Assembly (NCBI GenBank): GCA_963834845.1
Contig: CAWICY010000004.1
Location: 2,969,530-3,033,529 of the forward strand
DNA: 64,000 nucleotides
Source: an uncultured Pseudomonadota bacterium
GTDB lineage: Bacteria; Pseudomonadota; Gammaproteobacteria; Burkholderiales; SG8-39
Direction: 5' to 3'
In this document: piece after piece, positions 10,554-60,326 of the stretch
Numbering within the stretch: the stretch's first letter is position 1
Layout: every line of letters begins with the position of its first letter
The notes under the pieces: model-generated
What the model was told of the DNA's origin: nothing
Databases searched by the model: none
The model's input: only the letters and a program-made list of their open reading frames with translations
Made by a program: the position numbers and the translations under genes

Positions 10554-10567
10554 TTGAGTTAGATCAA
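10554..10567. promoter_or_regulatory. FNR/Anr-type box TTGAGTTAGATCAA upstream of phaC
   Basis: Match to the TTGA-N6-TCAA palindrome in the 67-nt SPFH-phaC spacer. The box centre is 41 nt before ATG 10601. Confidence 0.55.
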
Positions 10568-10600
10568 CTCTGTGCAGCGGGGGCGGCGCATGCTGGGACT

Positions 10601-12340
10601 ATGCGCTCTCCCGACCCGCTCGCCATTGCCGCGCAACCGGCCGACGCGCTGCTCAATTCGACGCTGGCGCGGCTGACGCAGGGCATCGCGCCGGCGTCGA
10701 TCGCCGGCGCCTACCTCGACTGGGCGACGCACCTCGCCGGCTCGCCCGCCAAGTGGCAGGAGCTCGCCGTCAAGGCGCAGAGGAAGTTCAGCCGCTTCGC
10801 CCTGTACGCGATGCAGCCCCCGGGCAGCTCGGAGCCGTGCATCGCGCCGCTGCCGCAGGATCGGCGCTTCGAGCACCGCGACTGGCAGGCGTGGCCGTTC
10901 AATCTGCTGCAGCAGGGTTTCCTGCTCACCCAACAGTGGTGGTGGAACGCGACCACCGGCGTGCGCGGCGTCGATGCGCACCATGAGTACGTCGTCGAAT
11001 TCATGACGCGCCAGTGGCTCGACATGTTCTCTCCCTCCAACTTTCCCTGGAGCAACCCCGAGGTGCTGCGCGAGACCGTGCACCGCGGCGGCGCCAACCT
11101 GGTGCAGGGCGCGATCAACTGGTGGGACGACGCGCTGCGCATCGCCGCCAACCGGCCGCACATCGGGCTGGAGCGCTGGCGCGTCGGCGAGAACCTGGCG
11201 CTCACGCCCGGCAAAGTGGTCTACCGCAACCACCTCATCGAGCTGATGCAGTACGCGCCGCAGACCGCGACGGTGCGCCCCGAGCCGCTGCTGATCGTTC
11301 CGTCGTGGATCATGAAGTACTACATTCTCGACCTGCAGCCGCAGGACTCGCTGGTGCGCTTCCTCGTCGAGCGCGGCTACACGGTGTTCCTGATCTCGTG
11401 GAAGAACCCGGGCGCACGCGAGCGCGAACTCGGCATCGACGACTACATCAAGAGCGGGGTGCTGGCGGCGCTCGAGGCGATCGGCAAGATCGTCCCCGGG
11501 CGGCGCGCGCACGCGCTCGGCTACTGCCTCGGCGGCACCCTGCTCGCGATGGCCGGGGCGCTGCTGGCGCGCGAGGGCGAGGAGCGGCTGGCGACGCTGT
11601 CGCTGCTCGCCGCCGAGACCGATTTCGAGGAGCCGGGCGAGCTGTCGCTGTTCATCGACGAGAGCCAGATCAGCTTCCTCGAGGACATGATGTTCACGCG
11701 CGGCTACCTCGACGGCAAGGAGATGGCGGGGGCGTTCGCGCTGCTCAACTCCAAGGACCTGGTGTGGTCGCGCATGGTGCGCGACTACCTGATGGGCCAG
11801 CGCGTCGAGGTGTCGGATCTCGCGGCGTGGAACGCCGACGCGACGCGCATGCCCTACCGCATGCACAGCGATTACCTGCGGCGCCTGTACCTCGGCAACG
11901 ACTTCACGGAAGGGCGCTTCATGGTCGACGGGCGGCCGATCGCGCTGTCGGACATCCGGGCGCCGATGTTCGTCGTCGGCGCCGAGCGCGACCACGTCTC
12001 GCCATGGCGCTCGGTGTACAAGGTGAACCTGTTCGCGGATACCGAAGTGACCTTCCTGCTGACGAGCGGCGGGCACAACGTCGGCGTCGTCAATCCGGCG
12101 TCCGGCCCCTATCCCGGCTCGAACTACCGAATGGCGGCGCGCGCGAGCGAAGACCGCTACGTCGATCCCGAGACCTGGCAGGAGGCGACGCCCGCGCACC
12201 CCGGCTCATGGTGGCCCGAGTACGCCGCCTGGCTCGACGGGCGCTCGGGCGCGCCCGCGGCGCCGCCGGCGATGGGCGCACCGGACAAGGGCCTGCCGCC
12301 GCTGTACGACGCGCCCGGGCGCTATGTCCTCGAGGACTGA
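10601..12340 (+). CDS. phaC: class I poly(3-hydroxyalkanoate) synthase
   Basis: Intact 579-aa ORF with the lipase-box GYCLGG, FLISWKNPG and typical PhaC N- and C-terminal regions. Confidence 0.9.
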   Translation: MRSPDPLAIAAQPADALLNSTLARLTQGIAPASIAGAYLDWATHLAGSPAKWQELAVKAQRKFSRFALYAMQPPGSSEPCIAPLPQDRRFEHRDWQAWPFNLLQQGFLLTQQWWWNATTGVRGVDAHHEYVVEFMTRQWLDMFSPSNFPWSNPEVLRETVHRGGANLVQGAINWWDDALRIAANRPHIGLERWRVGENLALTPGKVVYRNHLIELMQYAPQTATVRPEPLLIVPSWIMKYYILDLQPQDSLVRFLVERGYTVFLISWKNPGARERELGIDDYIKSGVLAALEAIGKIVPGRRAHALGYCLGGTLLAMAGALLAREGEERLATLSLLAAETDFEEPGELSLFIDESQISFLEDMMFTRGYLDGKEMAGAFALLNSKDLVWSRMVRDYLMGQRVEVSDLAAWNADATRMPYRMHSDYLRRLYLGNDFTEGRFMVDGRPIALSDIRAPMFVVGAERDHVSPWRSVYKVNLFADTEVTFLLTSGGHNVGVVNPASGPYPGSNYRMAARASEDRYVDPETWQEATPAHPGSWWPEYAAWLDGRSGAPAAPPAMGAPDKGLPPLYDAPGRYVLED

Positions 12341-12407
12341 GCAGGTCGGCGTCGTCGAGCAGGTGTCCGGACCGGTGATCGACGCGCCTCGCGTCGTCCG
12401 CAGCCCA

Positions 12408-12854
12408 CTACGGCCGGATGTAGGTCCAGCCGGCGCGCTGCTTGTCGGCGATCTCGATCAGGCCGCCCGGCGCGACGCGCACCCCGCCGATCAGGTCGTC
12501 CTTGGTGAGTTTCATCGCGCGCATGGTCTCGCCGCAGGCGACGACGTCGATGCTCTTGTCCAGCGCCTAGCCGATGCGGTCGGTGACTTTCGATTCGCTC
12601 TTGAGCATGTTCAACCCCGGCCCGATCGCGACGATCTCGATCTCCGAGTTGTCCTTGCCGATGTTGCGCTGGAAGGCGAACGCGTTGTTGAGCGCGAGGT
12701 TCCAGATCTGCGGATTGTTCTCGGTGACCTGGATCACGATCTGGTATTTGCCCTTCGCCCCTTCGCCCGCCGCCGCGGCGTGCGCGCTGGGCGTGACGCC
12801 GCCGGCGAGGAGCGTGGTAGCGAGAATGACCATCAGAGCGGCGAGTCGTTTCAC
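12408..12854 (-). pseudogene. secreted DsrE/DsrF-like (COG1416-type) protein, paralog B, with an in-frame TAG
   Basis: ORF 12567..12854 (signal peptide, YQIVIQVTENNPQIWNLALNNA) stops at TAG 12567-12569. The same frame continues ALDKSIDVVACGETMRAMKLTKDDLIGGVRVAPGGLIEIADKQRAGWTYIRP*, colinear with paralog A. Confidence 0.75.
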
Positions 12855-12869
12855 TTCGGGTTCCCTCCG

Positions 12870-13389: not shown

Positions 13390-13391
13390 AT

Positions 13392-18679: not shown

Positions 18680-19920
18680 TGCGCAGGCTGTACCTGCGCG
18701 TCTACCTCGCGGTGGTCGCGAGCCTGGTGGTGTTCGCGCTCGCCGCGGGATTCCTGTGGCGCCAGCTCGCCGACCCGGGGCTGGCGCGGCCCGCTTACGA
18801 GGCCGCCGAACGGCTGGCGCAGAACGCGCTGCCGCCGGTCGACGCGCCGCTCGGCGCGCAGCAGGCCGCGCTCGAGCGACTGGCTGCCGACTTGCGTGCC
18901 GACGTCGCGCTGTTCGACGCCGAGCGCAAGCCGATTGCGTTCGTCGGCCGCCCCTTGCGCCCGCCGCGCCCGGAGGTGCAGGAAAGCGGCTGGCTGCGGC
19001 GCTTCGGCGGCCCGCCGGCCTGGGGCATCAAGCTGCCCGACGGCCGCTGGCTGGTGGCGAGCGTCCCGCGCAACCGCCGGCACCCGGCCTGGGGACTGTT
19101 CTTCACGCTGGCGCTGCTGGCGATCGGCGTGGGCGTCGGTGCCTATCCGGTGGTGCGCCGCCTGACGCGCCGGCTGGAGAAGCTGCAGGTGGGGGTCGAG
19201 TCGCTCGGCTCGGGCGACCTGGCGGCGCGCGTCGAGGTCGAAGGCGGCGACGAGGTCGCGCGCCTCGCCGAGAGCTTCAACCGTGCCGCGGCGCGCATCG
19301 AGGCGCTGGTCGGCGCGCACAAGTCGCTGCTCGCCAACGCCTCGCACGAGCTGCGCACGCCGCTCACGCGCATCCGCATGGCGGTCGAGCTGATGAAGGA
19401 GGGCGCCGAGCCGAAGAGGAAGATCCAGTTCGAGCGCGACATCGCCGAGCTCGACCAGCTGATCGACGAGATCCTGCTCGCCAGCCGGCTCGATGCGGTC
19501 GACGGGCGCGAGGCCGACGAGGAGGTGGACCTGCTGGCGCTCGCGGCCGAGGAATGCGCGCGCTACGAGGGCGCCGACCTCGACGGCGAGCACGTCGTGC
19601 TGCGCGGGGACCCGCGGCTGCTGCGCCGGCTGATCCGCAACCTGCTGGAGAACGCGCGCCGCCACGGCGCCCCGCCGGTCGAGCTGCGCGTGCGCAGGAG
19701 CGTGGCCGGCGCCGAGATCTCGGTCTGCGACCGCGGCCCGGGAGTGCCCGAGGGCGAGCGCGAGCGCGTGTTCGAGCCGTTCTTCCGCCATGCCGCGGGC
19801 GCAAGCGGCGCCGGGCTGGGCCTCGCGCTGGTGCGCCAGATCGCGCGCCGCCACGGCGGCGACGCGCGCTGCCTGGCGCGCGCGGGCGGCGGCGCCTGCT
19901 TCGTCGCCGAGCTGCGCTAG
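18679..19920 (+). CDS. HAMP-domain sensor histidine kinase
   Basis: 413-aa ORF. Two TM helices, HAMP domain, H-box LLANASHELRTPLT, N/G boxes. TGATG overlap with the regulator gene. Confidence 0.9.
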   Translation: MRRLYLRVYLAVVASLVVFALAAGFLWRQLADPGLARPAYEAAERLAQNALPPVDAPLGAQQAALERLAADLRADVALFDAERKPIAFVGRPLRPPRPEVQESGWLRRFGGPPAWGIKLPDGRWLVASVPRNRRHPAWGLFFTLALLAIGVGVGAYPVVRRLTRRLEKLQVGVESLGSGDLAARVEVEGGDEVARLAESFNRAAARIEALVGAHKSLLANASHELRTPLTRIRMAVELMKEGAEPKRKIQFERDIAELDQLIDEILLASRLDAVDGREADEEVDLLALAAEECARYEGADLDGEHVVLRGDPRLLRRLIRNLLENARRHGAPPVELRVRRSVAGAEISVCDRGPGVPEGERERVFEPFFRHAAGASGAGLGLALVRQIARRHGGDARCLARAGGGACFVAELR

Positions 19921-20504
19921 TTCAGGTCGTCGTCCTTGTAGTACTTCGTTCCCTTGGCGGTGATCTCGGCCGCGAGCCCCGTGTCGGTAAGCTGGTAGAG
20001 CCACACGCCCGGCGACACGGACACCGCGCCGGCGTAGGCTGCGCCCTGCGCGCCCGATTTGGCCGCCGCGCTCGCCTGGCCGCCGAACTCGTAGCCCGCA
20101 TTGACAAAGGCGTTGAAGTCCTTGGCGTTCTCGAACACCCATACCAGCCTGAATTTCTTGGCGCCGAGCCCGAGGCCGGCCTGAACCTCGAGCATCTTCA
20201 TGTAGGTCGTCTTCTTGGCCTTGTTGTCGACCGCGACGCCCTCGCCCTTGCCGCTGCCGACAAAGAGGATCTTCATGCCGAAGTTGCTGAACACCGCGTA
20301 GCCCGCCGACTTCGCAACGGCGGCCTTGGCGCTAGGCTGCGCGCGGTACAGCCGGTCGAGCGTTTCGCTGGTCATCTTCTGTACTTCTGCGCGGGCCTGC
20401 TTCTTTTCCTTGTCGCTCATGGCGGCGGACGCACCCGTCGCGCCCGCCAGGCAAGCAGTGGCCACGACCGCAGCCACCATCAGCTTTCCGAGCCGCATTT
20501 TCAT
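19917..20504 (-). CDS. secreted SYLF (DUF500/Ysc84-like) lipid-binding domain protein
   Basis: Starts at the internal ATG 20504 (AGGAGA RBS) of ORF 19917..21371: MKMRLGKLMVAAVVATACLAGATGASA...GYAVFSNFGMKILFVGSGKGEGVAV...GGQASAAAKSGAQG. The family call is from memory. Confidence 0.7.
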   Translation of the reverse strand: MKMRLGKLMVAAVVATACLAGATGASAAMSDKEKKQARAEVQKMTSETLDRLYRAQPSAKAAVAKSAGYAVFSNFGMKILFVGSGKGEGVAVDNKAKKTTYMKMLEVQAGLGLGAKKFRLVWVFENAKDFNAFVNAGYEFGGQASAAAKSGAQGAAYAGAVSVSPGVWLYQLTDTGLAAEITAKGTKYYKDDDLN

Positions 20505-20565
20505 TCTCCTGTCGTTGTCACGGGGAAACCAGACAGGATTTCTACAGGGTTCGCGGCCGGGGGAC

Positions 20566-20579
20566 TTGACCAGCATCAA
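20566..20579. promoter_or_regulatory. FNR/Anr-type box TTGACCAGCATCAA upstream of the SYLF gene
   Basis: The palindrome is centred 68 nt before ATG 20504. TAGAAA lies at the expected -10 position on the minus strand (20544..20539). Confidence 0.55.
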
Positions 20580-20709: not shown

Positions 20710-21009
20710 ATGAACCCGGAACAATCCGACACCGAACAGCCGAACGAGCCGCAAAGTACCGAGCAACGGCCCCAGGACCCCCGCCGCAGACTGCGAGAGC
20801 TGCTCGCCATTCCCGAGCGCGACCGCAGCGACGCGGTGTGGGACGAGATCATCGCCCTCGAAATCGACCTGGCTCCCGGAAACCGCGCCTCCGCGCCGAA
20901 CCCCGACGGCGACCGCCGCAACGACCAAGGCCGTTCGCAGCAGCCCTCGTCCGGCCCGAAGCAGGGCGGGCGCCCCTTCAAGAAGCAGCGGCGCCGCGGC
21001 GGCAGGTAG
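20710..21009 (+). CDS. hypothetical acidic/basic small protein
   Basis: Starts at the internal ATG 20710 of ORF 20326..21009: MNPEQSDTEQPNEP...LRELLAIPERDRSDAVWDEIIALEIDLAPGNR...KKQRRRGGR. No family recognised. Confidence 0.5.
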   Translation: MNPEQSDTEQPNEPQSTEQRPQDPRRRLRELLAIPERDRSDAVWDEIIALEIDLAPGNRASAPNPDGDRRNDQGRSQQPSSGPKQGGRPFKKQRRRGGR

Positions 21010-21026
21010 TCCCGGCGCGGCCACGG

Positions 21027-21970
21027 ATGGCGCTCGACCCGGTGCGCGTGGCGGTGTTCGGCGCCGGCGCGGTGGGCTGCTTCTACGGTGGCATGCTGGC
21101 GCGCGCCGGGCACGAGGTGGTGCTGATCGGCAGGCCGCTGCACGTCGAGGCGATCCGCGCGTCGGGGCTGCATTTCGAGGGACTCGCTTTCGACGAGCAC
21201 ATCCGCCTCGCGGCGAGCACCGACGCCCGAGGCGGTGCGCGGCGCGCGGCTGGTGCTGGTGTGCGTCAAGTCGACCGACAGCGAGCAGGCCGCGGCCGAG
21301 ATCGCGCCTTTCCTCGAGCCCGACAGCATCGTCGTCAACCTGCAGAACGGCGTCGACAACGCCGAGCGCATCCAGGCGCGGCTGTCGCGGCCGGTGATTC
21401 CGGCGGTCGTGTACGTGGCGACCGAGATGGCGGGCCCCGGGCACCTGAAGCACCACGGCCGCGGCGAGCTGGTGATCGGCGCGCTCGATGCGGCGCCAGC
21501 GCCGGCGCTGCGCGAGGCGCTCGTGCGCGTGCAGCGCTGGTTCGGCGAGGCCGGCGTGCCGGTCGGCGATCTCGGACAACGTCGCGGGCGAGCTGTGGGC
21601 CAAGCTGGTCGTCAACTGCGCCTACAACGCGATCTCCGCGATCTCGCAGCTTCCTTACGGCGAGATGATCGGCGGCGTCGGCGTGCGCGAAGTGATGTGC
21701 GACGTGGTCGCCGAGACGCTCGCGGTCGCCGCGGCGAGCGGCGTGCGCACCGCGCCGGAGCTGGTCGATAACGTGTACCGGATCGCGGAATGGATGCCGA
21801 CCCAGTATTCGTCCACCGCGCAGGACCTGCAGCGCGGCCGCCCGACCGAGATCGACCACCTGAACGGTTTGGTGGTGCGCCGGGGTGACGCGCTCGGCGT
21901 GCCGGTGCCGGCGAACCGCGTACTCTATGCGCTCGTCAAGTTGATCGAGTCGAAAGGAAATCCATCATGA
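21027..21970 (+). pseudogene. panE: 2-dehydropantoate 2-reductase, two frameshifts (about 21225 and 21568)
   Basis: VAVFGAGAVGCFYGGMLARAGHEVVLIGR is in frame 1. LVLVCVKSTDSEQAAAEIAPFLEPDSIVVNLQNGVDN is in frame 2 (ORF 21235..). SDNVAGELWAKLVVNCAYNAISAI...STAQDLQRGRPTEIDHLNG is in frame 3 (ORF 21488..21970). Confidence 0.8.
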
Positions 21971-27665: not shown

Positions 27666-28196
27666 TCAGCGGCTCCAGGTCGCGCGCAGCAGCTGGTCTT
27701 CCTTGTTGTAGTGGAACTCGACCTCGCCCTTGTAGGCCTCGTGCACGCGCTCGGCGATGTCGCGCGCCATGTGCGTGCCGGTGGTGGTGACGAGCATCCC
27801 TTCGTCGGTGTCCTCGATCGCCATGATGCGCTCGAGCGGATGTCCGGACTTCTCCTTGCCCTCGCAGTTGCGCACCATGTGCGTGATCTCGTCGCGATGC
27901 GCCTTCAAGTACGGGCCCTTCAGCGTCACGGAGCCGGCGGGATACTTGTCGCGGATGCGGTGGCACGCGGGGCACAGCTGCTCGTGGGCGCCCGGGTCTG
28001 CGGCTTCCCATGTCCAGCGCCCCCGATGATAGGTCGCGCCGCAGCCGGGGCAGCGCGTCGGCTCGGGCAGCTTGCCCTTGGTCTTGTAGGTGTCGTGCAC
28101 GAGCTCCTGCAACAGCTGCTCCCTGCGGAGCATACGAAAACTTCCGCGATCCGGTTTCATGACCTGGCCTTCCATTGCGATTGATTTCTCGGACAT
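27666..28196 (-). CDS. four-Cys zinc-ribbon protein (resembles what I recall as the 'BCAM0308 family')
   Basis: In ORF 27666..28328. Candidate starts are 28196, 28175 or 28160. ...LLQELVHDTYKTKGKLPEPTRCPGCGATYHRGRWTW....LCPACHRIRDKYPAG.VTL.G....HRDEI..MVRN. Confidence 0.6.
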   Translation of the reverse strand: MSEKSIAMEGQVMKPDRGSFRMLRREQLLQELVHDTYKTKGKLPEPTRCPGCGATYHRGRWTWEAADPGAHEQLCPACHRIRDKYPAGSVTLKGPYLKAHRDEITHMVRNCEGKEKSGHPLERIMAIEDTDEGMLVTTTGTHMARDIAERVHEAYKGEVEFHYNKEDQLLRATWSR

Positions 28197-28197
28197 C

Positions 28198-28746
28198 TCA
28201 GGGCAAGGGCCCGTGCTTGCCGACGCTGACGCGCTTCGCCTGCGGCCCTTCGGCCGCCGCCTCTTCGATGAACTGCACCTCGGTGCCGACCGCGAGGCCC
28301 TTGAAATCCGGGTGCACCACGTTTGCACGGCTGAAATACAGCTCGCGCCCGTCCGGCGTCGCGATAAAGCCGTAGCCCTCGTCGGCGACGAGGCGCGCGA
28401 CGCGCCCGTGCTGCGGCACGTCGTGGAGCTTGACGTCGCCCCGTCGGACGCGCACGTCCTCCTCGAGCTGCCGCGTCACCGCCGCGAAGGCGTCGCGCAG
28501 CGCCACGTACACGTCCTCGTGATGGTCGCGGTTGGCGACGATCTCGCGTCCCGGTACGTGCGCGTCGATGCGCACCTGGAACTGGCGCCCCTGATGCTGG
28601 TGCTTGTCCTTTTCCTCGACCGTGACGCGGCAGCTGATGAGCTGCGGGTGGAATTCCTCCAGTTTCGCGGCCTGGTCGCGGATGCGCGCCTCGAGCGCGT
28701 CGGAAGCCGGCATGTGGCGGACCGTGATTTGCAGGGGTACTTGCAT
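28198..28746 (-). CDS. HPF/RaiA ribosome-hibernation domain fused to a C-terminal cold-shock (CSD/OB) domain
   Basis: 182-aa ORF. The N-terminus MQVPLQITVRHMPASDALEARIRDQAAKLEEFHPQLISCRVTVE... is HPF/RaiA-like. The C-terminus GRVARLVADEGYGFIATPDGRELYFSRANVV...GTEVQFIEE is CspA-like. Confidence 0.75.
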   Translation of the reverse strand: MQVPLQITVRHMPASDALEARIRDQAAKLEEFHPQLISCRVTVEEKDKHQHQGRQFQVRIDAHVPGREIVANRDHHEDVYVALRDAFAAVTRQLEEDVRVRRGDVKLHDVPQHGRVARLVADEGYGFIATPDGRELYFSRANVVHPDFKGLAVGTEVQFIEEAAAEGPQAKRVSVGKHGPLP

Positions 28747-28809
28747 GGGACCTTCTTTTGGGCGGGTTGAACCTCTGCTTTCAGAATAGCGGGAGGCCGA
28801 GGGCGGGAC

Positions 28810-28823
28810 TTGACCTTGATCAA
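28810..28823. promoter_or_regulatory. FNR/Anr-type box TTGACCTTGATCAA upstream of hpf-CSD
   Basis: Centred 70 nt before ATG 28746 and overlapping the DUF504 stop codon. TATTCT lies at the expected -10 position (28789..28784, minus strand). Confidence 0.55.
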
Positions 28824-29086
28824 ACCGGTCCCTTTGGCGCTCGCTGCCAGATGAGCTTGCCGTCGCGCCACACCTCGCGTATGCGGTGAAACGGTACCAT
28901 GTGCGTGCTGCCGTCGTCCTCGACTGCGTCGAACGCGAAATGTTCGCCGGGCTCCAGATTCAACCGCCTGAACGGCACGCGCACGTTGCGCCCGGCGACG
29001 CGATCCTCGTAGCCGATCTCGAACTCGCCCTTGCCGAATTCCGGGTCCCAGCGGATGCGGTGCAGCAGGTCCTGGATGGGCATCAT
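28820..29086 (-). CDS. DUF504 / MJ1316-type domain protein (proposed RNA 2',3'-cyclic-phosphate end recognition domain)
   Basis: 88 aa starting at the internal ATG 29086: MMPIQDLLHRIRWDPEFGKGEFEIGYEDRVAGRNVRVPF...HMVPFHRIREVWRDGKLIWQR. ATGA overlap with the PrimPol stop. The family call is from memory of the L..I.WD...Y.DR...IP.HRI...G..IW.R pattern. Confidence 0.65.
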   Translation of the reverse strand: MMPIQDLLHRIRWDPEFGKGEFEIGYEDRVAGRNVRVPFRRLNLEPGEHFAFDAVEDDGSTHMVPFHRIREVWRDGKLIWQRAPKGPV

Positions 29087-29896
29087 GGTCGCTGCGCATC
29101 GCGTTCGCCGAGGTGCAGGCGCGCGATGCTGTCGACCACGCTCGCCACTTCGGCGTCCTCGAGCGGCGGGCTGCAGCGCGCGCGGTTCCACGCCAGCAGC
29201 AGCTCGAGCACCACCTCGGGATCGACCTCGTGCCACAGCAGGTGGCCGGCGAGCGAGGCGAGCGTGGCGTTGCGCTCGCCTTCGCCGACGCCACGGCGGA
29301 CCAGCTCGCGCCAGTGGGCGAGCGGGTGTCCGGCGCGCTTCGCGCCGGCGTCGCGCAGCAGCCAGGTCGGCAGCGGCGCGAGCGGCGCCTCCTGCGGCGC
29401 CCGCCCGCCCGCCCAGGCATAGCGGCGGCCGGTCGGATGGATCGACGGCGGCGCGACGACGCAGCCGCCGTCGCCGCGCAGGTCGATGCCGGGCAGCAGG
29501 CCGACGCGGTTGCCGACCCGGCCGCCCGGGTGCGCGAAGTACAGGTGGCGTCCGCCGCCGCCGGTCAGCGCCTCGACAGTCTCCGGCAACGGGCCGTGAG
29601 CGGCTTCGAGCCGGGCGAGGCTCGCGTCGCCGCCGTGCCCGACGTCGACATCGACCACCACCAGCCCGGAGATGCGTCCGGTGACGATGCCGAGATTGGC
29701 CTCCGGCCAGCGCGCGATCCACGCCTCGAGGTCGTCGGGCGTCGCCAGTCGATCCTGGAACTCGAGCCACGCGATCAGCGGGCGCTTGCCGCGGCGCTCG
29801 ATCGGGATCACCGACCAGCCGCGCCGCAGGTAGCCTAGTGCCGCCTCGCGGTTGCTTGGTGCCGAAGCGCGCTGCGTTGCGTCCCCTCGTCGTCAT
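29083..29896 (-). CDS. bifunctional DNA primase/polymerase (archaeo-eukaryotic Prim-Pol) with a PriCT-like C-terminal domain; frameshift near 29850
   Basis: ORF 29083..29811 carries GLVVVDVDVGHGG (metal-binding DxD), GGGRHLYF and GDGGCVVAPPSIHPTG, then GERNATLASLAGHLLW. The in-frame upstream stretch ...NREAALGYLRRGWSVIPIE has no start codon. ATG 29896 (MTTRGRNAARFGTKQ) is one frame off. Confidence 0.75.
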
Positions 29897-29939
29897 GCGT
29901 AGTCGAGTACGCATTGTTGGGCGAGTTCCCGTGCGCAGT

Positions 29940-29953
29940 TTGATTTACGTCAA
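29940..29953. promoter_or_regulatory. FNR/Anr-type box TTGATTTACGTCAA between PrimPol and a small plus-strand ORF
   Basis: Centred 50 nt before PrimPol ATG 29896 and 41.5 nt before ATG 29988. Confidence 0.5.
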
Positions 29954-29987
29954 GAGACGCTCCCCCGGGCGGCGCGAACATCGCGGC

Positions 29988-30176
29988 ATGGGTCATATGG
30001 AAAAATTCGTGCGTACGCGGCTCCGTCGCGACGGCGCCGAAGACGTGACGGTGCTGCTCGAAAGTGCGGACGCCTTCGAGCCGCGCGTACTCGAACTGCT
30101 GCGCAACCTCAGCGCGCGCTCGGTCCGCTGCAGGCTGCGCCTGGTGGGCGACGGCAGGAAGACGAAACGGACCTGA
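29988..30176 (+). CDS. hypothetical small basic protein (tentative)
   Basis: Inner part of ORF 29838..30176: MGHMEKFVRTRLRRDGAEDVTVLLESADAFEPRVLELLRNLSARSVRCRLRLVGDGRKTKRT. Third-position G+C is high in this frame. No family recognised. Confidence 0.3.
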   Translation: MGHMEKFVRTRLRRDGAEDVTVLLESADAFEPRVLELLRNLSARSVRCRLRLVGDGRKTKRT

Positions 30177-30276: not shown

Positions 30277-30290
30277 TTGACGTACGTCAA
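30277..30290. promoter_or_regulatory. FNR/Anr-type box TTGACGTACGTCAA (perfect 14-bp palindrome) upstream of capA
   Basis: Centred 47 nt before ATG 30331. Confidence 0.5.
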
Positions 30291-30330
30291 CCCGGATCCC
30301 GCTTGCGGCGTCAACATGCTCACAATCCCC

Positions 30331-39895: not shown

Positions 39896-39986
39896 CTCAG
39901 GTCAGGTATTCGATTCGGGAAAGCTTAGCACCACGCATTCCGGCACCGAGGCACCACCCAGTGTCGCTGTTGCGGCGCGCCCGGTC

Positions 39987-40000
39987 TTGATCGCGGTCAA
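39987..40000. promoter_or_regulatory. FNR/Anr-type box TTGATCGCGGTCAA in the divergent methyltransferase / M50 protease spacer
   Basis: Centred 64 nt before ATG 40058 and 98 nt before ATG 39895. Confidence 0.5.
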
Positions 40001-40057
40001 ATCGCCGGGCATTCGATCGACGACAATGACCCTGAACATGACTGAACCACGAGCCCG

Positions 40058-41173: not shown

Positions 41174-41424
41174 CCGCTCATTCCCAGGGCCTCTCTGATC
41201 TCGGCCTCGGCCTCGAGCCAGTCATCGAGCTCGTGCCCCGCGGCGAACGCGCGCTGCTCCGCGCGCCGGTACGCCGCTTGCGCAACGAGCTGGTGCAGCT
41301 CTTCATCGCTGAATTCGGTGCCGGAATTGGCCGTATGCGCCGTGGGGCGCGAGAGCACCACCTTGGCGGCCTCGCCGGTCCCGACCCGGGTGGATGTGGC
41401 AGGTGTCGTTTCGCGTGCTGGCAT
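41170..41424 (-). CDS. DUF2934-domain protein
   Basis: 84-aa ORF with the C-terminal motif LVAQAAYRRAEQRAFAAGHELDDWLEAEAEI. Confidence 0.7.
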   Translation of the reverse strand: MPARETTPATSTRVGTGEAAKVVLSRPTAHTANSGTEFSDEELHQLVAQAAYRRAEQRAFAAGHELDDWLEAEAEIREALGMSG

Positions 41425-41478
41425 GGCGTCCTCCTTGCGTGACCTCGCGCCATGATGCCGCCGGCGCGCGCCGGCGGC

Positions 41479-41492
41479 TTGACCGGGATCAA
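41479..41492. promoter_or_regulatory. FNR/Anr-type box TTGACCGGGATCAA upstream of the DUF2934 gene
   Basis: Centred 61 nt before ATG 41424. Confidence 0.55.
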
Positions 41493-41508: not shown

Positions 41509-42330
41509 TCACGCGCCGCTCTTGCGGTAGGTCGCGCGCAGCCCCGGCCAGGGCGCCAGCTGCTCGAGCGCCGCGGGCAGCGCCTCGTGCAGGCCGACCA
41601 CCAGCGCACCGCCCGGCCTCAGGTGCTCGATGATCCGGTGCATCGTCTCCTCCTGCAGCCGCGGCTCGAAATAGGTGAGCGCGAGATTGCGGCACAGGAT
41701 CAGGTCGAAGCTGCCCGCGGGCAGCTCGATGCGGATGTCCTGGCGCGCGAACTCGACGCAGGCGCGCGGCTCCGGCTGCACGCACCGCAGCTCGCCGGAA
41801 CGGTCGAAGGCCTGCGCCAGCAGCTCCGGCGGCAGCTCCCTGAGGCTGCTCGCGCGGTAGCAGCCGCGCGCCGCGCGCTCGAGCGGGGGCGCATCGACGT
41901 CGGTCGCCAGCACGCGCAGGCGAAGCCCGGGAAATCCTGCCTGCAGCCGGAAGCGCCACAGGATCGCCAGCGTGTAGGGCTCCTCGCCGCTCGCGCAGCC
42001 CGCGCTCCAGCAATCGAGCGCCGCGCGCCCGGCCGCGCTCGCGGCCTGCGCCAGCGCGGGCAACACCACACGCCCGAGCTCCTCGAACACGGCGCGGTCG
42101 CGCCAGAAGCGCGAAATCGGGATCGGGCACAGGCCCTCGAGCGCAGGCCACTCCGTGGCATCGCGCTCGAGCAGCGCGCGATAGGCGTCGAGGTCGGGCA
42201 GGCCGAGCGCACGCAGCCTGCGCGCGACGCGCTTGCACACCACGCCGCGCACTTTGCGAAATCCCGGCCAATGCAGGCGCAGGCGCGGCAGCGCCCATTG
42301 CAGGAACCGGACGCACTCGGCGTCCCTCAC
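41509..42330 (-). CDS. CheR-family SAM-dependent protein-glutamate methyltransferase-like protein (orphan)
   Basis: In ORF 41509..42417. GTG 42330 gives a GTGA overlap with the upstream 74-aa ORF. ..RFWRDRAVFE...WSAGCASGEEPYTLAI...VLATDVD...YRASSLRELP...FDLILCRNLALTYF. Confidence 0.75.
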   Translation of the reverse strand: MRDAECVRFLQWALPRLRLHWPGFRKVRGVVCKRVARRLRALGLPDLDAYRALLERDATEWPALEGLCPIPISRFWRDRAVFEELGRVVLPALAQAASAAGRAALDCWSAGCASGEEPYTLAILWRFRLQAGFPGLRLRVLATDVDAPPLERAARGCYRASSLRELPPELLAQAFDRSGELRCVQPEPRACVEFARQDIRIELPAGSFDLILCRNLALTYFEPRLQEETMHRIIEHLRPGGALVVGLHEALPAALEQLAPWPGLRATYRKSGA

Positions 42331-42551
42331 GCGGTGCGCGTGAACGCGGCGAGGTCCCACTCGCCGGTGTTCTCGTCGTGGCGCAGGATGTAGGTGTTGC
42401 CGTCGCTCGCACGGCACTTGAACCAGCGGCGCTCGGGCTCCATCCAGCGGTCGACGATCTCAACTACGTCCAGGCGTCGCTCGCCGAGGCGGAAGGCGCG
42501 CGGCTCCTGCTCGCTGCGATACCCGGCATGGCATTCGACGTGGAGGCCCAT
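42327..42551 (-). CDS. hypothetical 74-aa protein translationally coupled to the CheR-like gene
   Basis: MGLHVECHAGYRSEQEPRAFRLGERRLDVVEIVDRWMEPERRWFKCRASDGNTYILRHDENTGEWDL. No family name recalled. Confidence 0.55.
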   Translation of the reverse strand: MGLHVECHAGYRSEQEPRAFRLGERRLDVVEIVDRWMEPERRWFKCRASDGNTYILRHDENTGEWDLAAFTRTA

Positions 42552-42614: not shown

Positions 42615-42628
42615 TTGAGCTACGTCAA
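42615..42628. promoter_or_regulatory. FNR/Anr-type box TTGAGCTACGTCAA in the divergent 74-aa/CheR versus hsp20 spacer
   Basis: Centred 70 nt before ATG 42551 (minus) and 95 nt before ATG 42717 (plus). Confidence 0.5.
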
Positions 42629-42716
42629 TATTGTGCCGCGGGCCTCTGGCAGCATGGTTCCCCACGGCGGAGACTCTTCGCCAACCGTTCACCGGAATAT
42701 TTTCAGGAGGTGCCAA

Positions 42717-43211
42717 ATGGCTGCAGAGAAGAAGGAAGTCACTGTCAGGAAAGGCGAAATCCAGAAGGCCCCGCCAAGAGTGGTCGGCAGCCCCTTCGAG
42801 AGCATGGAGCGCATGTTCGACGATTTCCTCGGACGCGGCTGGCTGCGGCCGTTCCGGCGCGACTGGCCGGCGTTTCCCGAGATCGACTTGACCATGCCGA
42901 AGGTCGACGTCATCGACCGCGACGACGATGTGGTGGTGCGCGCCGAGGTGCCAGCGGTCAAGAAGGAGGACATCGAGGTTTCGATCTCGGGCAACACGGT
43001 GACCATCAAGGGAGAGAGCAAGCACGAGGAGAAGGAAGAGAAGGGCGACTACTACCGCGCCGAGATCTCGCGTGGCGCATTCTCGCGCATGGTGACGCTG
43101 CCGGCGGAGGTCGACGAGTCCAAGGCAAAGGCCGCGCTCAAGGACGGCGTCCTCGAGCTGACTCTGCCCAAGGTCCAGAAGGCCAAGCGGCGCACGATCA
43201 AGGTAGCCTGA
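42717..43211 (+). CDS. Hsp20/alpha-crystallin family small heat-shock protein
   Basis: Starts at the internal ATG 42717 (AGGAGG RBS): ...PKVDVIDRDDDVVVRAEVPAVKKEDIEVSISGNTVTIKGE...GAFSRMVTLPAEVDESKAKAALKDGVLELTLPK. Confidence 0.9.
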   Translation: MAAEKKEVTVRKGEIQKAPPRVVGSPFESMERMFDDFLGRGWLRPFRRDWPAFPEIDLTMPKVDVIDRDDDVVVRAEVPAVKKEDIEVSISGNTVTIKGESKHEEKEEKGDYYRAEISRGAFSRMVTLPAEVDESKAKAALKDGVLELTLPKVQKAKRRTIKVA

Positions 43212-44338: not shown

Positions 44339-44785
44339 TCAGGCCGCCTTCCAGCTGCCGTCGGGCTGGCGGCAGGCCGTGCCGTTGATGTTTTCGGATT
44401 TGCCGTCGATCACCGCCTGCGTCGTGAATTCGCGGCACGGTCCGGACGCCGTCTGGTAGGTGCGCGTCGGCGTGACGGTGTAGGTGGCGCCGGTATCCGG
44501 GTTGCGCCAGCCTGTCGGTGCGCCGGTGGGCGCGGTCTCCAGCGCCTGCGCCGCCTTCATCCGGTCCTTTTCGTCCATCGACGTGCCGATCCGGCTGCCG
44601 AGATAGGCGCCGGCGAGCGCGCCGGCGACGATCGCCACCGTCCGCCCGGTGCCGCCGCCGACCTGCGCGCCCAGCACACCGCCCAGCACGCCGCCGGCGA
44701 CCGTCCCGACCTGCTGTTTGGTCGGCTCCGCTTGGCACGCGGCGAGCGCCGCAGCAAGCAGCCCGATGATCACGATGCGTTTCAT
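44339..44785 (-). CDS. 17-kDa surface antigen / glycine-zipper lipoprotein with a C-terminal Cys-pair domain
   Basis: Starts at the internal ATG 44785: MKRIVIIGLLAAALAAC (lipobox), GGVLGGVLGAQVGGGTG glycine zipper, then ..WRNPDTGATYTVTPT..GPCREF......GTACRQPDGSW. Confidence 0.75.
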   Translation of the reverse strand: MKRIVIIGLLAAALAACQAEPTKQQVGTVAGGVLGGVLGAQVGGGTGRTVAIVAGALAGAYLGSRIGTSMDEKDRMKAAQALETAPTGAPTGWRNPDTGATYTVTPTRTYQTASGPCREFTTQAVIDGKSENINGTACRQPDGSWKAA

Positions 44786-44850: not shown

Positions 44851-44864
44851 CTTGATCTCGATCA
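44851..44864. promoter_or_regulatory. FNR/Anr-type box TTGATCTCGATCAA (matches both consensus half-sites)
   Basis: Lies in the divergent spacer. Centred 72 nt before ATG 44785 (minus) and 85 nt before ATG 44943 (plus). Confidence 0.55.
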
Positions 44865-44942
44865 ACGTCAGGGGAACCTCGGCCGCTAGATTCGATCAAT
44901 CAACGGCCGCCGGGACGCAACCCGGCCCAGGGAGCCCCACAT

Positions 44943-45335
44943 ATGACACTGACCGCCAAGCAGATGGAAGAGTTCGGCCGCCTGATCCGCCAGCGCCGCG
45001 AGCAGCTGGTGAGCGAACTGCTCGAGGACGTGGCGCGCTCGCGCGACGAGAGCTACGCCAGCGTGGCGGGGCAGGTGACCGATCTCGGCGACGAGGCGCT
45101 CGCCGACCTGCTTTCGGATCTGGACAACGCCGAGGTTGCGCGCGACATGCGCGAGATCCGCGCGCTCGACGCGGCGCTGGCGCGCGTCGCGGACGGCAGC
45201 TACGGCAATTGCGCCGACTGCGGTGGCGACATCGGCCTGGAGCGGCTGCACGCCTTCCCTACGGCGTTGCGCTGCATCAGGTGCCAGGAGGTCTACGAGA
45301 AGACCCACGCGCACCCGGCGGAGCCGCGTCTCTAG
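44943..45335 (+). CDS. TraR/DksA-family C4 zinc-finger protein
   Basis: 130-aa ORF: ...YGNCADCGGDIGLERLHAFPTALRCIRCQ. Confidence 0.8.
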   Translation: MTLTAKQMEEFGRLIRQRREQLVSELLEDVARSRDESYASVAGQVTDLGDEALADLLSDLDNAEVARDMREIRALDAALARVADGSYGNCADCGGDIGLERLHAFPTALRCIRCQEVYEKTHAHPAEPRL

Positions 45336-46342
45336 CCGGGCGCTTTCCGCGCCCGCTCCAGCTCCGTGCGCAGCTCGGCTTCGCGCTCGGCGTAGCGCGG
45401 CGAGAAATGGAATGGCACCACCAGGCGCGCGCGCGCCACGCGTGCAATGTTGCCGGCCTGGCGCGCGGTGAGGTGGAACTTGCGCGCCGCGTGGTCCGCG
45501 TCCTCGTCCAGGAACACGCACTCGATGTATAGCTGGTCCGCGTCGGCCGCGAGCGCGGCGAGGCGCCGCTCGTTCTCGGCGCTGTGCAGCACGTCGGTCG
45601 CGTAGCACAGCTTCTCGCCGGGCACCAGCTCGAGCACGCGCGCCTTGAGCTCACCCAGGGAATGATGCTGCTCGTGCAGGCCGTCGCGGTCGTGCCACCA
45701 GGCGCGCTGCCGCGTGTCGTCGGGCGCGCCCTGCATCACCGCGCGCTTCAGCTCGGTGAGCCACGGCCCCGTCTGCAGGCCCATCTCGGCGAGCCGGTTC
45801 TTCCACACGTTGACGTGCGTCTTCTCTTCCAGCACGAAGGCGAGGCAGGTGATGTCGTGGTCGAGCGCCGCCGCCCGCACGCGAAACGCCGGCTCGTCGA
45901 GCAGCAATCCCGCAGGGGCGTCGCGCGGCGGCTGCGGCTCCCGCTCGAAGCGCGCGTGGCAGCGAAAGCGTGCGGCGCGCAGCCGCTCGCCGTCGAGCTC
46001 GTGCACCAGCAGCGCGAAGTCCGTCGCATAGTTCTGCACCAGGTTCCAGCTATAGGCGGCGAGCTTGTGCTCGACGCGGCCGATGAAGCCCGGCGGACCG
46101 TAGAGACGGACCGCGGTCTCGCGCCCCAGGCACACGCGCAGCAGCCGGTCGAAGCCGACGAAGTGGTCCATGTGGGCGTGCGACACGAAGACGTCGGTCA
46201 GGCGCAGGATCTTGCGCGGCGGGAGCGCCGCGATGTCGCCGAGGTCGAACAGCAGCGCGCGGCCCTCGAACTTGAAGTCGAGGTACAGGCAAGGATCGCC
46301 GAACGGGCCGTTGACGAGTTCCGGGGTGAAGATCGGGCGCAT
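45332..46342 (-). CDS. MBL-fold metallo-hydrolase (RNase Z-like)
   Basis: Starts at the internal ATG 46342: MRPIFTPELVNGPFGDPCLYLDF...LTDVFVSHAHMDHFVGFDRLLR. Confidence 0.8.
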   Translation of the reverse strand: MRPIFTPELVNGPFGDPCLYLDFKFEGRALLFDLGDIAALPPRKILRLTDVFVSHAHMDHFVGFDRLLRVCLGRETAVRLYGPPGFIGRVEHKLAAYSWNLVQNYATDFALLVHELDGERLRAARFRCHARFEREPQPPRDAPAGLLLDEPAFRVRAAALDHDITCLAFVLEEKTHVNVWKNRLAEMGLQTGPWLTELKRAVMQGAPDDTRQRAWWHDRDGLHEQHHSLGELKARVLELVPGEKLCYATDVLHSAENERRLAALAADADQLYIECVFLDEDADHAARKFHLTARQAGNIARVARARLVVPFHFSPRYAEREAELRTELERARKAPG

Positions 46343-52701: not shown

Positions 52702-54064
52702 CGGTCGCGGCTGCCCCGGTCAGGCGCGTCGCGACGACCCGCGTCCGGCGCGTCACGGGGTGCCGCGGTGCGCGGCTCACCCGTTGACCGCGATTCTCGC
52801 TGCGCGGGCGGCGCGCCGCGGCCCTGCGATTCGGGCCTGGAATGCGGCTGGCTTCGTTCGCCGCTCGGCGTTGAGCGCTGCTGCGTCTGAGGCATAGGCC
52901 GCTGCTGGGACTTAGGCGCAGGCCGCGGCTGCGTCTGGGCGCAGGCCGCTGCTGCGTTTGAGGCGCAGGCTGCTGCTGCGTCTGAGGCGCAGGCTGCTGC
53001 TGCGTCTGAGGCGCAGGCCGCTGCTGCGTCTGAGGCGCAGGCCGCTGCCGGAACTGCGGCGCCGGCTGGTGCTGGGGCGTTGCGCGCTGCTGTGGCGCAT
53101 CCCGACGCGGTTCGAACGTCCTTGGCTGAGGCCGTCCCGGTTGGGGCTCGTATCGCGGCGGCTCGGTGCGCCGCGGCTCCGTGCGCCGCGGCGCGGCGCG
53201 CGTGACGGGTTGCGGATAGCGCTCCCTGAGCTCCTCGTGGCGATAGTCGACGCCGCGGCGGTGCCGAACGTCGTGGCGCCACTGCAGGGGCACGTTGTGC
53301 GAGACCCGCGGACGATAGTAATAGTTGGTGACGTAGACGGTGTCGACGTGGCGCCGGTGCCAGTCGAAGGCGCCGAAGAAGAATCCCGTCGACAGCGAGA
53401 TGCCGCTGCCCCAGTAGATGCCGACCGAGACGCCCGGCCGCACCGCATAGCCGGGCCACGGCGCCCAGTACACCGGCGGATATCCCGGCCACCACCATGT
53501 GCCGTACACCACCCAGGGATCGTAGTAGGGCACGTACACGACGCGCGGATCGGCCGGCTGGACGACGAGCTGGTTGTCCTCCTGCGCCACCAGAACGTCG
53601 GCGTTGGACTCGAGGTTGCCGGCGGCGTAGGCGCGCCGGCGCAGCGCCTGCACCGTTTCGAGCACGTACGGCTCCTGCGCGAGGAACGCCTCGCCGAGCT
53701 GCTCGGTCCAGTCGATCCTTTCGTCCATCATGGCGAGCACGCGCGGAAACGCGACCAGCGACTTGACGCTCGGGTCCCAGTCCTCGTTCACGACCGCGCG
53801 CACCGCATCGTCGCCCTGCAGTTGGGGATACGCCCTCGACCAGCGCGCCGCCCTCACCACCTCGAGCGGGTAGGTCGACGCCATGAGGATTTGCGTCAGG
53901 AGCGGATCGGGATACAGCGCGATCGGCGCCAGCATCTGGTCGAGCTCCTGCTGGCTGTAGAAGCGCTCGGGCGCAGCGGGCTGCGGGGTCTGCGCCTGCG
54001 CCACTGACAACGCACAGGTGGCCAGAACCGATCCAATCAACCAGCTTTTGATCGTCCTCAACAT
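52698..54064 (-). CDS. DUF3300-domain secreted protein with a Pro/Gln/Arg-rich repeat tail; 1-nt deletion inside the repeat (about 52938)
   Basis: ATG 54064 (or 54070): MLRTIKSWLIGSVLATCALSVAQA...LDQMLAPIALYPDPLLTQILMASTYPLEVV... The repeat QRPAPQTQ occurs x4-5, then the frame changes to that of ORF 52698..53498 (...QTQPRPAPKSQQRPMPQTQQR...). Confidence 0.75.
52877..53043. repeat. seven tandem 24-nt units (GCTGCTGCGTCTGAGGCGCAGGCC-like) encoding (Q/R)PAPQTQQ
   Basis: Units begin at 52877, 52901, 52925, 52948, 52972, 52996 and 53020. The third unit is 23 nt, which is the frameshift site. Confidence 0.85.
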
Positions 54065-59432: not shown

Positions 59433-59454
59433 CGTACATGCGTATACTGCCGGA

Positions 59455-60300
59455 ATGAAAGTACGCACCGCGGCGGCCGCGGCGGGCGAGGTCTCGCTCG
59501 GCGGCCTGCACGTGCGCCGCATGGGCTTCGGCGCGATGCGCGTGTGCGGGCCGGGCGTGTGGGGCCCGCCGCGCGACCGTGCCGGCGCGCACCGCGTGTT
59601 CCGCCGCGCGATCGAGCTTGGCGTGAATTTCTTCGACACCGCCGACAGCTACGGCCCGCACGTCGACGAGGAAATGATCGCGGAGGCGCTGCACCCGTAC
59701 CCCGAGGGGCTAGTGATCGCCACCAAGGGCGGCCTGGTGCGGCCCAACCGCAACGCCTGGGACCCCGACGGCCGGCCCGAGCACCTGCGCCACGCGCTCG
59801 AGGGGAGCCTCAGGCGCCTGAAGCTCGAGCGCATCGACCTGTACCAGCTGCACGCGCCCGACCCGCGCGTGCCGTTCGCCGACTCGGTGGGCGCGCTCGC
59901 CGACATGCAGCGCGCGGGCAAGATCCGCCACATCGGCGTGTCCAACGTCTCGGTGAAGGAGCTCGAGGCGGCGCGCCGCATCGCGACCATCGTCTCGGTG
60001 CAGAACGAGTACAACCTCGGCGAGCGCTCGTCGGACGAGGTGCTCGCCGCCTGCGAGCGGCTCGGCATCGCCTTCCTGCCCTGGTACCCGCTGGGCGCAG
60101 GCGCGGTGCTGCGCGCGACGGGCGTGAAGAAAATCGCCAAGCGCCATGGCGTGGGTGCGGCGCAAGTGGCGCTCGCCTGGCTGCTGGCGCGCTCGCCGAT
60201 GATGCTGCCGATCCCCGGCACCGCTTCGCTCGAGCACCTCGAGGAGAACGTCGCCGCGGCGGCGCTGAAGATTCCAGGCGAGGAGCTCGCCGCGCTCTAG
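59455..60300 (+). CDS. aldo/keto reductase
   Basis: Starts at the internal ATG 59455 of ORF 58849..60300: ...GFGAMRV...FFDTADSYGP...IDLYQLHAPD...IGVSN. Confidence 0.85.
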   Translation: MKVRTAAAAAGEVSLGGLHVRRMGFGAMRVCGPGVWGPPRDRAGAHRVFRRAIELGVNFFDTADSYGPHVDEEMIAEALHPYPEGLVIATKGGLVRPNRNAWDPDGRPEHLRHALEGSLRRLKLERIDLYQLHAPDPRVPFADSVGALADMQRAGKIRHIGVSNVSVKELEAARRIATIVSVQNEYNLGERSSDEVLAACERLGIAFLPWYPLGAGAVLRATGVKKIAKRHGVGAAQVALAWLLARSPMMLPIPGTASLEHLEENVAAAALKIPGEELAAL

Positions 60301-60312
60301 GCGATCTTGCAG

Positions 60313-60326
60313 TTGACCTGGATCAA
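60313..60326. promoter_or_regulatory. FNR/Anr-type box TTGACCTGGATCAA upstream of the efflux operon
   Basis: Centred 61 nt before ATG 60381. Confidence 0.55.

Follow-up and report, generated by a model that had tools for sequence, protein, structure and literature searches.

FNR/Anr-type palindromes at predicted promoters of an lxa-like gene cluster in an uncultured Burkholderiales lineage

The DNA considered here is a stretch of 64,000 nucleotides (nt) from contig CAWICY010000004.1 of an uncultured Burkholderiales bacterium (assembly GCA_963834845.1). This stretch, referred to as the window and numbered from its first letter, contains repeated copies of TTGA-N6-TCAA, a palindrome resembling the sites bound by the FNR and Anr regulators. 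What purpose do so many copies of one motif serve in a single gene cluster? The data presented below suggest that eleven of the thirteen copies are, very probably, operators for a dimeric activator of the CRP/FNR family that has the specificity of the FNR/Anr/FixK group and is encoded outside the window.

Abundance and placement of the palindromes

A pattern search of the window for TTGANNNNNNTCAA (TTGA-N6-TCAA; hereafter the box) yielded exactly 13 matches. The mean number of matches in 100 dinucleotide-preserving shuffles of the same DNA was 0.24 and the maximum was 2, making for an approximately 50-fold excess. An earlier reading of this DNA made from the letters alone (the sequence-only reading) had listed the same sites, one of them at 44851 instead of the true start at 44852; its estimate of about 0.1 chance occurrences was of the right order of magnitude. 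As it had also noted, A and T each account for about 15% of the bases, since the GC content across the window is 0.68-0.74. Allowing one mismatch raised the total to 20 sites against 4.8 expected. Only 7 sites were added by this relaxation and, therefore, the excess lies almost wholly in perfect cores.

Genes were called with a codon model trained on the window, because at 70% GC the raw list of open reading frames (ORFs) is mostly spurious, and start codons were refined near each box. Products were annotated with Pfam and NCBIfam, which bore out all of the gene labels previously proposed. Scans of the window for tRNA genes and Rfam families found none. Although the window is about 91% coding, 9 of the 13 boxes are wholly or mostly non-coding (binomial P = 2.5e-7). 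Together with the boxes at 10554 and 39224, both of which overlap the 3′ end of the upstream gene, these make up a set of 11 promoter-positioned boxes, the same number that the sequence-only reading had placed just upstream of genes. Eight of the 11 fall within the 28.8-44.9 kb interval. The core is present in all 13 sites, and nine of the 11 in promoter positions also conform to the consensus reported for Anr/Dnr, TTGA(T/C)-N4-(A/G)TCAA (Y5/R10; PMC4860495), which is shared with the Anr regulon of Pseudomonas. This agrees with the original assignment of the half-sites to the FNR/Anr type.

When read toward the gene, most boxes (about 8 of the 11 promoters) take the form TTGAT-N4-GTCAA, with a T at position 5 (distal half) and a G at position 10 (proximal half). 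This asymmetry is not obvious in a Burkholderia locus described below (L164), and its significance is limited by the non-independence of orthologous sites.

Promoter geometry and conservation in relatives

To locate −10 elements, each box was read toward its gene and searched for the hexamer nAnnnT, which represents the two most conserved positions of the sigma-70 −10 sequence. The hexamer starts 21 nt after the box in 9 of the 12 oriented window sites and 22 nt after it in two more, against a background of 4.5% for either offset; no other offset between 0 and 33 is enriched. When the window was pooled with its relatives, 59 of 63 boxes had nAnnnT 21 or 22 nt away on at least one side. The pooled offset profile shows one spike at 21 (54 counts versus about 2 elsewhere), and information content is approximately zero outside the core and the two −10 positions. 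No −35 motif other than the box can be recognised in these promoters, and their −10 elements are weak, often CAnCAT. In the class II promoters of Escherichia coli FNR, a dimeric activator binds a site near −41.5 that replaces the −35 element. With transcription starts predicted 7 nt after the hexamer, box centres would lie between −39.5 and −41.5. Thus, the spacing between box and −10 supports the class II FNR arrangement that the sequence-only reading had assumed, as far as can be judged from starts positioned in this way. The leaders that it had expected to measure 0-57 nt span a wider predicted range, 0-95 nt, with PrimPol as the outlier. Fnr/Dnr sites of Dinoroseobacter provide precedents both for centres at −39.5 and −41.5 and for a single box common to divergent promoters (PMC5398030).

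Conservation was assessed in two scans. A genome-collection scan with the M50-CBS protease (named for its M50 and CBS domains) as query returned 80 loci, of which only the closest, L001 from a Burkholderiales metagenome-assembled genome (MAG; 79% identity), shows a box equally far upstream of M50-CBS. The box is identical to that of the window, and L001 carries four boxes in 6.7 kb. Alignment of three spacers between the window and L001 showed the box and the −10 element to be kept, the latter in the form nAnnAT, while neighbouring bases have diverged or contain indels. In the spacer between the methyltransferase and M50-CBS genes, the box plus one base on either side is invariant (16 bp) and adjoins a 32-bp indel. 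In the spacer between the lipoprotein and DksA-like genes, the half-sites are unchanged while the inner bases are altered. A metagenome scan with the methyltransferase as query produced 18 loci at 72-93% protein identity and 62 more distant ones. In the 153 kb of the former there are 47 boxes, where about 0.2 would be expected; the 565 kb of the latter contain 12 boxes, with 3.3 expected. Gene order is rearranged in the close loci; the boxes nevertheless stay upstream of HPF-CSD, DUF2934 and Hsp20, beside DksA, in the CapA/PrimPol and M50/methyltransferase spacers, and in the 3′ end of the methyltransferase gene ahead of orf165 or the S-adenosylmethionine (SAM) synthetase gene. Thus, boxes are conserved in orthologous spacers of L001 and of the 18 relatives, a comparison that the sequence-only reading had listed among those able to refute it. 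Two contigs with an identical Hsp20 (L082 and L083) are 99.8-99.9% identical to the window and hence uninformative on conservation.

Beyond the close relatives, the resemblance fades. A plasmid megablast with 18 kb of the window gave short, weak matches only. In B. stagnalis, CapA alone is held in common with the window, and one box lies about 350 nt upstream of it. Among the distant metagenomic loci, the methyltransferase and HPF-CSD are the only genes that co-occur (9 of 62). Orthologues of the M50-CBS protease are found at 45-70% identity in Acidobacteriota, Chloroflexota, Ignavibacteriota, Methylomirabilota and other phyla (L002-L080), and this unusually flat spread of identities suggests wide horizontal transfer of the gene. 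The idea of a mobile dormancy kit passed between phyla found no support, as the M50-CBS loci of other phyla have neither an upstream box nor other genes of the island nearby.

Relationship to the lxa locus and probable nature of the regulator

A cluster of this kind is known from Burkholderia cenocepacia J2315, where induction of the low-oxygen-activated (lxa) locus, which comprises 50 genes, reaches as much as 240-fold at 6% O2 (Sass 2013, PMC3721108). The lxa motif occurs at 17 intergenic points; it is an inverted repeat of 4 bp whose arms are 6 bp apart, and it has TGA-N6-TCA in common with Anr/Fnr sites (PMC3721108). Both lxa and the window thus combine a 4+6+4 inverted repeat at many intergenic points of one gene cluster with a Burkholderiales genome of about 70% GC. 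They also have in common BCAM0308, a class I-like PhaC, Hsp20, an RNase Z-type metallo-β-lactamase (MBL) protein, a BON protein and an ABC efflux set. The BCAM0308-family gene of the window (27666-28133, 155 aa, downstream of HPF-CSD) was assigned at equivalog level (NCBIfam NF040826, lxa_BCAM0308; 209 bits for a cutoff of 100). Retrieval through BCAM0308 led to a further lxa-type locus, L164 of Burkholderia sp. FXe9. Its 40 kb contain 8 boxes where 0.06 would be expected, and every one of them is followed, on one side at least, by a −10-like hexamer at a distance of 21-22 nt. Box density and box-to-−10 spacing are the same as in the window, whereas the gene order and, by the L164 annotation, most of the genes are different: the locus includes universal stress proteins (USPs), acetate kinase, alcohol dehydrogenase, MBL and BON proteins, BCAM0308, FtsH, ribonucleotide reductase (RNR) and PfkB. 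The window is therefore best described as a further example of an lxa-type system, in an uncultured Burkholderiales lineage, and not as a new type of regulatory element.

The gene content of the window overlaps only in part with that of lxa. By Pfam, it contains none of the USPs, of which lxa has six. It also lacks the Anr-like regulator encoded within lxa (BCAM0287), the two-component systems placed under boxes there and, by Pfam and NCBIfam, acetate kinase, alcohol dehydrogenase, a B12-dependent RNR, PfkB and an FtsH-type protease. Conversely, HPFcold, M50-CBS, a CapA-like protein, PrimPol with MJ1316, an archaeal-type SAM synthetase, methyltransferases and a DksA-like protein are found in the window and not in lxa. 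The host belongs to an uncultured lineage whose closest genome match is a Burkholderiales MAG with 75-89% protein identity.

We postulate that each of the 11 boxes replaces the −35 element of a class II promoter, its centre lying near −40.5 or −41.5 and a weak nAnnnT −10 element following 21-22 nt after the box. Four boxes lie symmetrically between divergent genes and would probably fire both ways. Some 15 transcription units, amounting to about 30 genes, would thereby be driven together. Their products would serve ribosome hibernation (HPFcold with the adjacent BCAM0308-family protein), chaperoning and proteolysis (Hsp20, M50-CBS and M28), the processing of RNA and DNA ends (PrimPol with MJ1316), SAM metabolism and methylation (the archaeal-type methionine adenosyltransferase, two methyltransferases and a radical-SAM enzyme), carbon storage (PhaC), and envelope and efflux functions (the CapA-like protein, lipoproteins and a MacAB-like pump), with a DksA-like factor in addition. 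B. cenocepacia lxa has the same motif, the same geometry and a number of genes in common with the window; by analogy, oxygen limitation is the most likely trigger of the regulon, whose role would be to support survival without growth. The latter part of this proposal is suggested by the presence of HPF-CSD, Hsp20, two proteases, PhaC, envelope proteins and the DksA-like factor in the gene set.

Where is the activator encoded? Pfam identified no CRP/FNR domain in any called ORF of the window. Searches by tblastn with approximate E. coli FNR and CRP probes gave a best E of 0.87 in the window and nothing in 19 close loci. The two approaches agree with the sequence-only reading that the regulator gene lies elsewhere. 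This same result, no regulator gene in the window or the 19 related loci, counts against the proposal. Other points weigh on the same side. The core of a classic Anr/FNR regulon consists of genes for anaerobic respiration, for fermentation and for high-affinity oxidases, and the window has none of them; by Pfam, USPs, a terminal oxidase, fermentation genes and an in-locus Anr-like regulator are all missing. In view of the absence of these hallmark genes of the lxa and Anr regulons, oxygen as the inducing signal rests on analogy. Even for lxa the regulator is only a predicted one, an Anr-like protein (BCAM0287) or FixLJ-FixK. Furthermore, related genomes supplied many of the conserved boxes, and these do not represent independent events; the start sites, too, were predicted from −10 elements that are themselves weak.

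The alternative that fares best concerns the signal rather than the mechanism. The boxes may be bound by a CRP/FNR-family member that does not sense oxygen directly, either a FixK-type protein acting below the FixLJ haem kinase or a nitric-oxide sensor of the Dnr/NnrR type. The regulon would then answer that signal in place of one read by an Fe-S FNR/Anr protein, and the class II mechanism at the DNA would be unchanged. These branches recognise the same or indistinguishable boxes, likewise with single boxes between divergent promoters at −39.5/−41.5 (PMC5398030), but they sense through a haem kinase cascade or nitric oxide and not through an oxygen-labile Fe-S cluster. The PRODORIC consensus, TTGA(T/C)N4(A/G)TCAA, is common to Anr and Dnr (PMC4860495), and Dnr sites have been described as indistinguishable from Anr boxes (PMC5398030); hence the box alone cannot name the type of sensor. 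The many boxes that read TTGAT-N4-GTCAA toward the gene, without a perfect ATCAA proximal half, are a point in favour of this alternative. A 2025 review (PMC12071387), which still treats the lxa regulator as only predicted (FixLJ-FixK or Anr-like), proposes FixL-FixJ-FixK as the route of activation in B. cenocepacia. On the other hand, nothing in the window tells the subtypes apart, and its Pfam and NCBIfam annotations include no fix, nir or nor genes: fixLJ is missing, as are the denitrification genes expected near Dnr/NnrR targets. Sass 2013 (PMC3721108) favoured Anr-like regulators, with BCAM0049, BCAM0287 and BCAM1483 as candidates. In addition, the putative Anr box in the cytochrome bd promoter of B. 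cenocepacia H111 (PMC9104464) is identical to the window box at 44852, TTGATCTCGATCAA. On balance, we regard a FixK- or Dnr-type regulator as a possibility to be entertained tentatively.

It is very unlikely that the palindromes are operators at which a repressor, or a regulator of some unrelated family recognising TTGA-N6-TCAA, blocks the promoters. The −35 region occupied by the box is a place where a repressor could also act, and the failure to find a regulator gene in the window or the 19 related loci suits such a reading. However, weak −10 elements with no −35 besides the box are characteristic of class II promoters that depend on an activator; the motif, its spacing and its position all agree with the FNR class; and the corresponding genes of lxa stay silent in air and are induced at low oxygen (PMC3721108). 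Finally, there is almost no likelihood that the palindromes lack a regulatory role and arose by chance, from base composition or as pieces of a dispersed repeat or mobile element. Two of the 13 (12601 and 54048) do lie within coding sequence without promoter features, and the boxes at 39224 and 41479 are identical 14-mers, but the excess over shuffled DNA, the fixed distance to the −10 and the retention of boxes in orthologous spacers of diverged relatives whose flanks have changed all speak to the contrary. Chance is ruled out by the shuffles at both levels of stringency (13 exact matches versus 0.24; 20 versus 4.8 with one mismatch), and a repeat or mobile element by the lack of information content beyond the 14-bp core and the −10.

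Two other systems bear comparison with the window. In Mycobacterium tuberculosis, the DosR (DevR) regulon, whose membership was taken from PMC5309233, has counterparts by functional class only: Rv0079/RafH for HPFcold, HspX for Hsp20, the metalloprotease Rv2625c/Rip3 for M50-CBS, Tgs1 for PhaC, the CapA-like Rv0574c, the phosphoribosyltransferase Rv0571c, and the RtcB protein Rv2631 for MJ1316 and RtcA. DosR differs from the window system in being a NarL/LuxR-type response regulator, unrelated to the CRP/FNR family, that uses another DNA motif in another phylum; the parallel had already been drawn for lxa by Sass 2013 (PMC3721108). In Azospirillum brasilense Sp7, plasmid p3 carries a cluster of Hsp20, BCAM0308, nicotinate phosphoribosyltransferase, phosphoribosyl pyrophosphate synthetase and USP genes (locus L165), with a Crp/Fnr gene about 12 kb away. 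No TTGA-N6-TCAA boxes occur near this Hsp20/BCAM0308/USP cluster, and a related gene set may thus be wired to a different operator in Alphaproteobacteria.

The individual sites, their genes and what they imply

The leftmost box, TTGAGTTAGATCAA (10554-10567, + strand), overlaps the last codons of a Band-7 gene, 33 nt ahead of the ATG of phaC (10601-12340), which encodes a class I-like polyhydroxyalkanoate synthase. With a −10 element CATGCT at 10589-10594, the predicted transcript is leaderless. The next site, TTGAGCATGTTCAA (12601-12614), lies within a DsrE-like reading frame; it lacks a −10 on both sides, its half-sites both depart from the consensus, and it is probably incidental. The frame itself (12408-12833, − strand) is interrupted by an in-frame TAG at about 12567-12569, reading ...DRIG*ALDKSIDVVACGETM..., and could be a pseudogene, the result of a sequencing error or subject to read-through. 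The box at 20566-20579 (− strand) is the putative promoter site of the gene for a SYLF/Ysc84 lipoprotein (19917-20504, − strand), with TAGAAA at 20539-20544 and a predicted leader of about 28 nt.

At 28810-28823 (− strand), a box overlapping the stop codon of the MJ1316 gene precedes TATTCT at 28783-28788 and would drive the HPFcold gene (HPF-CSD, 28198-28746, − strand); the BCAM0308-family gene (27666-28133, − strand) is probably co-transcribed from the same site. The HPF-CSD product is a close homologue of Coxiella CBU_0020 HPFcold (E = 1e-52), a protein whose structure on the ribosome (PDB 9T0Z/9TZE; PMC13392368) shows its cold-shock domain bound to the anti-Shine-Dalgarno sequence. The BCAM0308-family protein has a weak NMD3-like Pfam match, and a sequence search of the PDB identified no relative of it. 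Conservation of the pair in relatives L090-L095 suggests that the two proteins may form a two-part ribosome-silencing module.

The box at 29940-29953 is placed between divergent promoters. On the minus side, AACAAT at 29913-29918 precedes the genes for PrimPol (29083-29811) and MJ1316 (28820-29086); on the plus side, GAACAT at 29976-29981 precedes a 62-aa ORF (orf62, 29988-30176) whose transcript is predicted to be leaderless. RNA-end enzymes are concentrated in the window: besides the pair of PrimPol and the cyclic-phosphate-end domain MJ1316 (28820-29811, − strand), they include RtcA (1140-2177, − strand), which has no box, and an MBL protein of the RNase Z subfamily, taken up below. Shortly downstream, the box TTGACGTACGTCAA (30277-30290, + strand) is followed by CAACAT at 30312-30317 and, after a predicted leader of about 7 nt, by the gene for the CapA-like protein (30331-31428). 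It probably also drives the downstream Mo-hydroxylase, GYD, M28 peptidase and radical-SAM genes, to position 36168.

Within the 3′ end of the methyltransferase ORF, the box at 39224-39237 (− strand) is positioned as an internal promoter 35 nt ahead of orf165 (38691-39188), with CAACAT at 39196-39201 and a transcript predicted to be leaderless. Its targets, all on the minus strand, would be orf165, a phosphoribosyltransferase gene (38031-38675) and the SAM synthetase gene (36866-38068). The box, the −10 and the ATG of orf165 are all conserved in L001 and L098-L100. A sequence search of the PDB with orf165 returned nothing meaningful. The SAM synthetase belongs to the archaeal type of methionine adenosyltransferase (PF01941; NF003366, 539 bits), here found in betaproteobacterial surroundings; its identity across all close relatives is 83-97%. 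The box between the methyltransferase gene and orf165 reads TTGATCCCGGTCAA in the window, in L001 and in seven relatives (L084-L086, L091, L092, L097 and L101). In L098-L100 (at about 1063, 1371 and 770, respectively), it reads TTGACCGCGATCAA and is identical to the box upstream of the methyltransferase gene, which could reflect local duplication or conversion of the operator.

The box at 39987-40000 lies between divergent promoters for M50-CBS (40058-41173, + strand; −10 GACAAT at 40022-40027) and the methyltransferase (39185-39895, − strand; −10 GACACT at 39960-39965). Upstream of M50-CBS there is a 7-codon ORF (40038-40061, with its ATG at 40038); its TGA stop codon and the start codon of M50-CBS overlap in the sequence ATGA. 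At the position of this start codon L001 reads ATC, and the true start of the M50 gene may therefore differ between relatives. The box at 41479-41492 (− strand) is the presumptive promoter site of a DUF2934 gene (41170-41424, − strand), with CATCAT at 41452-41457, a predicted leader of about 21 nt and an AAGGAGG ribosome-binding site. At 42615-42628, another box lies between divergent promoters: on the plus side for Hsp20 (42717-43211; −10 CAGCAT at 42650-42655) and on the minus side for orf74 (42327-42551) and a CheR-like methyltransferase (41509-42459), with a weaker −10, TAGGCT, at offset 20. The perfect box TTGATCTCGATCAA at 44852-44865 is flanked on the plus side by TAGATT and a DksA/TraR-like gene (44943-45335), and on the minus side by AATCAT and a lipoprotein operon comprising the genes for a 17-kDa glycine-zipper lipoprotein (44339-44785), orf72 and a DUF1496 protein. 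A gene for an MBL protein of the RNase Z subfamily (45332-46342, − strand) is convergent with the DksA-like gene.

The box at 54048-54061 covers codons 2-6 of a DUF3300 gene (ATG at 54064, − strand) and has no −10 at the canonical distance in either direction; it is probably incidental or, at best, a site that is not of class II. The last box (60313-60326, + strand) is followed by GATCCT/TCCTAT at 60348-60355 and would serve the genes for a MacA-like protein (60381-61586), a MacB/FtsX-like permease (61583-62809) and an ABC ATPase (62802-63545).

Two other features of the window involve broken or doubtful reading frames. A ketopantoate-reductase-like gene (20838-21970, + strand) is split over two frames, with the ApbA N-terminal domain at 20838-21668 and ApbA_C at 21488-21970, which suggests a frameshift or a pseudogene. 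Two long ORFs at 3532-8181 (− strand) match the UvrA DNA-binding domain and ABC_tran in a region where the codon model scored poorly; they could belong to a UvrA paralogue, possibly a disrupted one.

Transcription is predicted to begin at about 10601, 20532, 28776, 29988/29906, 30324, 39189, 40034/39953, 41445, 42662/42582, 44899/44818 and 60360. In four cases, the predicted transcription start coincides with the start codon or falls no more than 7 nt from it: phaC (10601), orf62 (29988), orf165 (39188) and CapA (30331). If so positioned, these mRNAs would be leaderless or nearly so.

A more ambitious interpretation, which we put forward as speculative and rather doubtful, is that the boxes define an undescribed dormancy programme of an uncultured, high-GC Burkholderiales lineage of soil or sediment, a counterpart of DosR under a different regulator. 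According to this interpretation, a single FNR-type factor would co-induce HPFcold and the NMD3-like BCAM0308 protein, of uncharacterised structure, as a ribosome-silencing pair, along with a PrimPol/MJ1316 module for nucleic-acid ends, the archaeal-type SAM synthetase and methyltransferases, and proteostasis through M50-CBS and Hsp20. The phaC, orf62, orf165 and, nearly so, CapA products would then be made from leaderless mRNAs that need no Shine-Dalgarno pairing.

Independently of that interpretation, the window extends the lxa/Anr-box paradigm of Burkholderia to an uncultured lineage with a largely different set of genes. Since different genes are found under the same box, the cis-element and the promoter geometry are what is conserved, while the genes placed under their control vary. 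The cluster offers about 15 precisely predicted promoters, shared divergent and leaderless ones among them, that are open to direct testing. Finally, a single presumed low-oxygen switch would control HPFcold, the uncharacterised BCAM0308 family, PrimPol/MJ1316 and an archaeal-type SAM synthetase, which provides leads to the function of these proteins.

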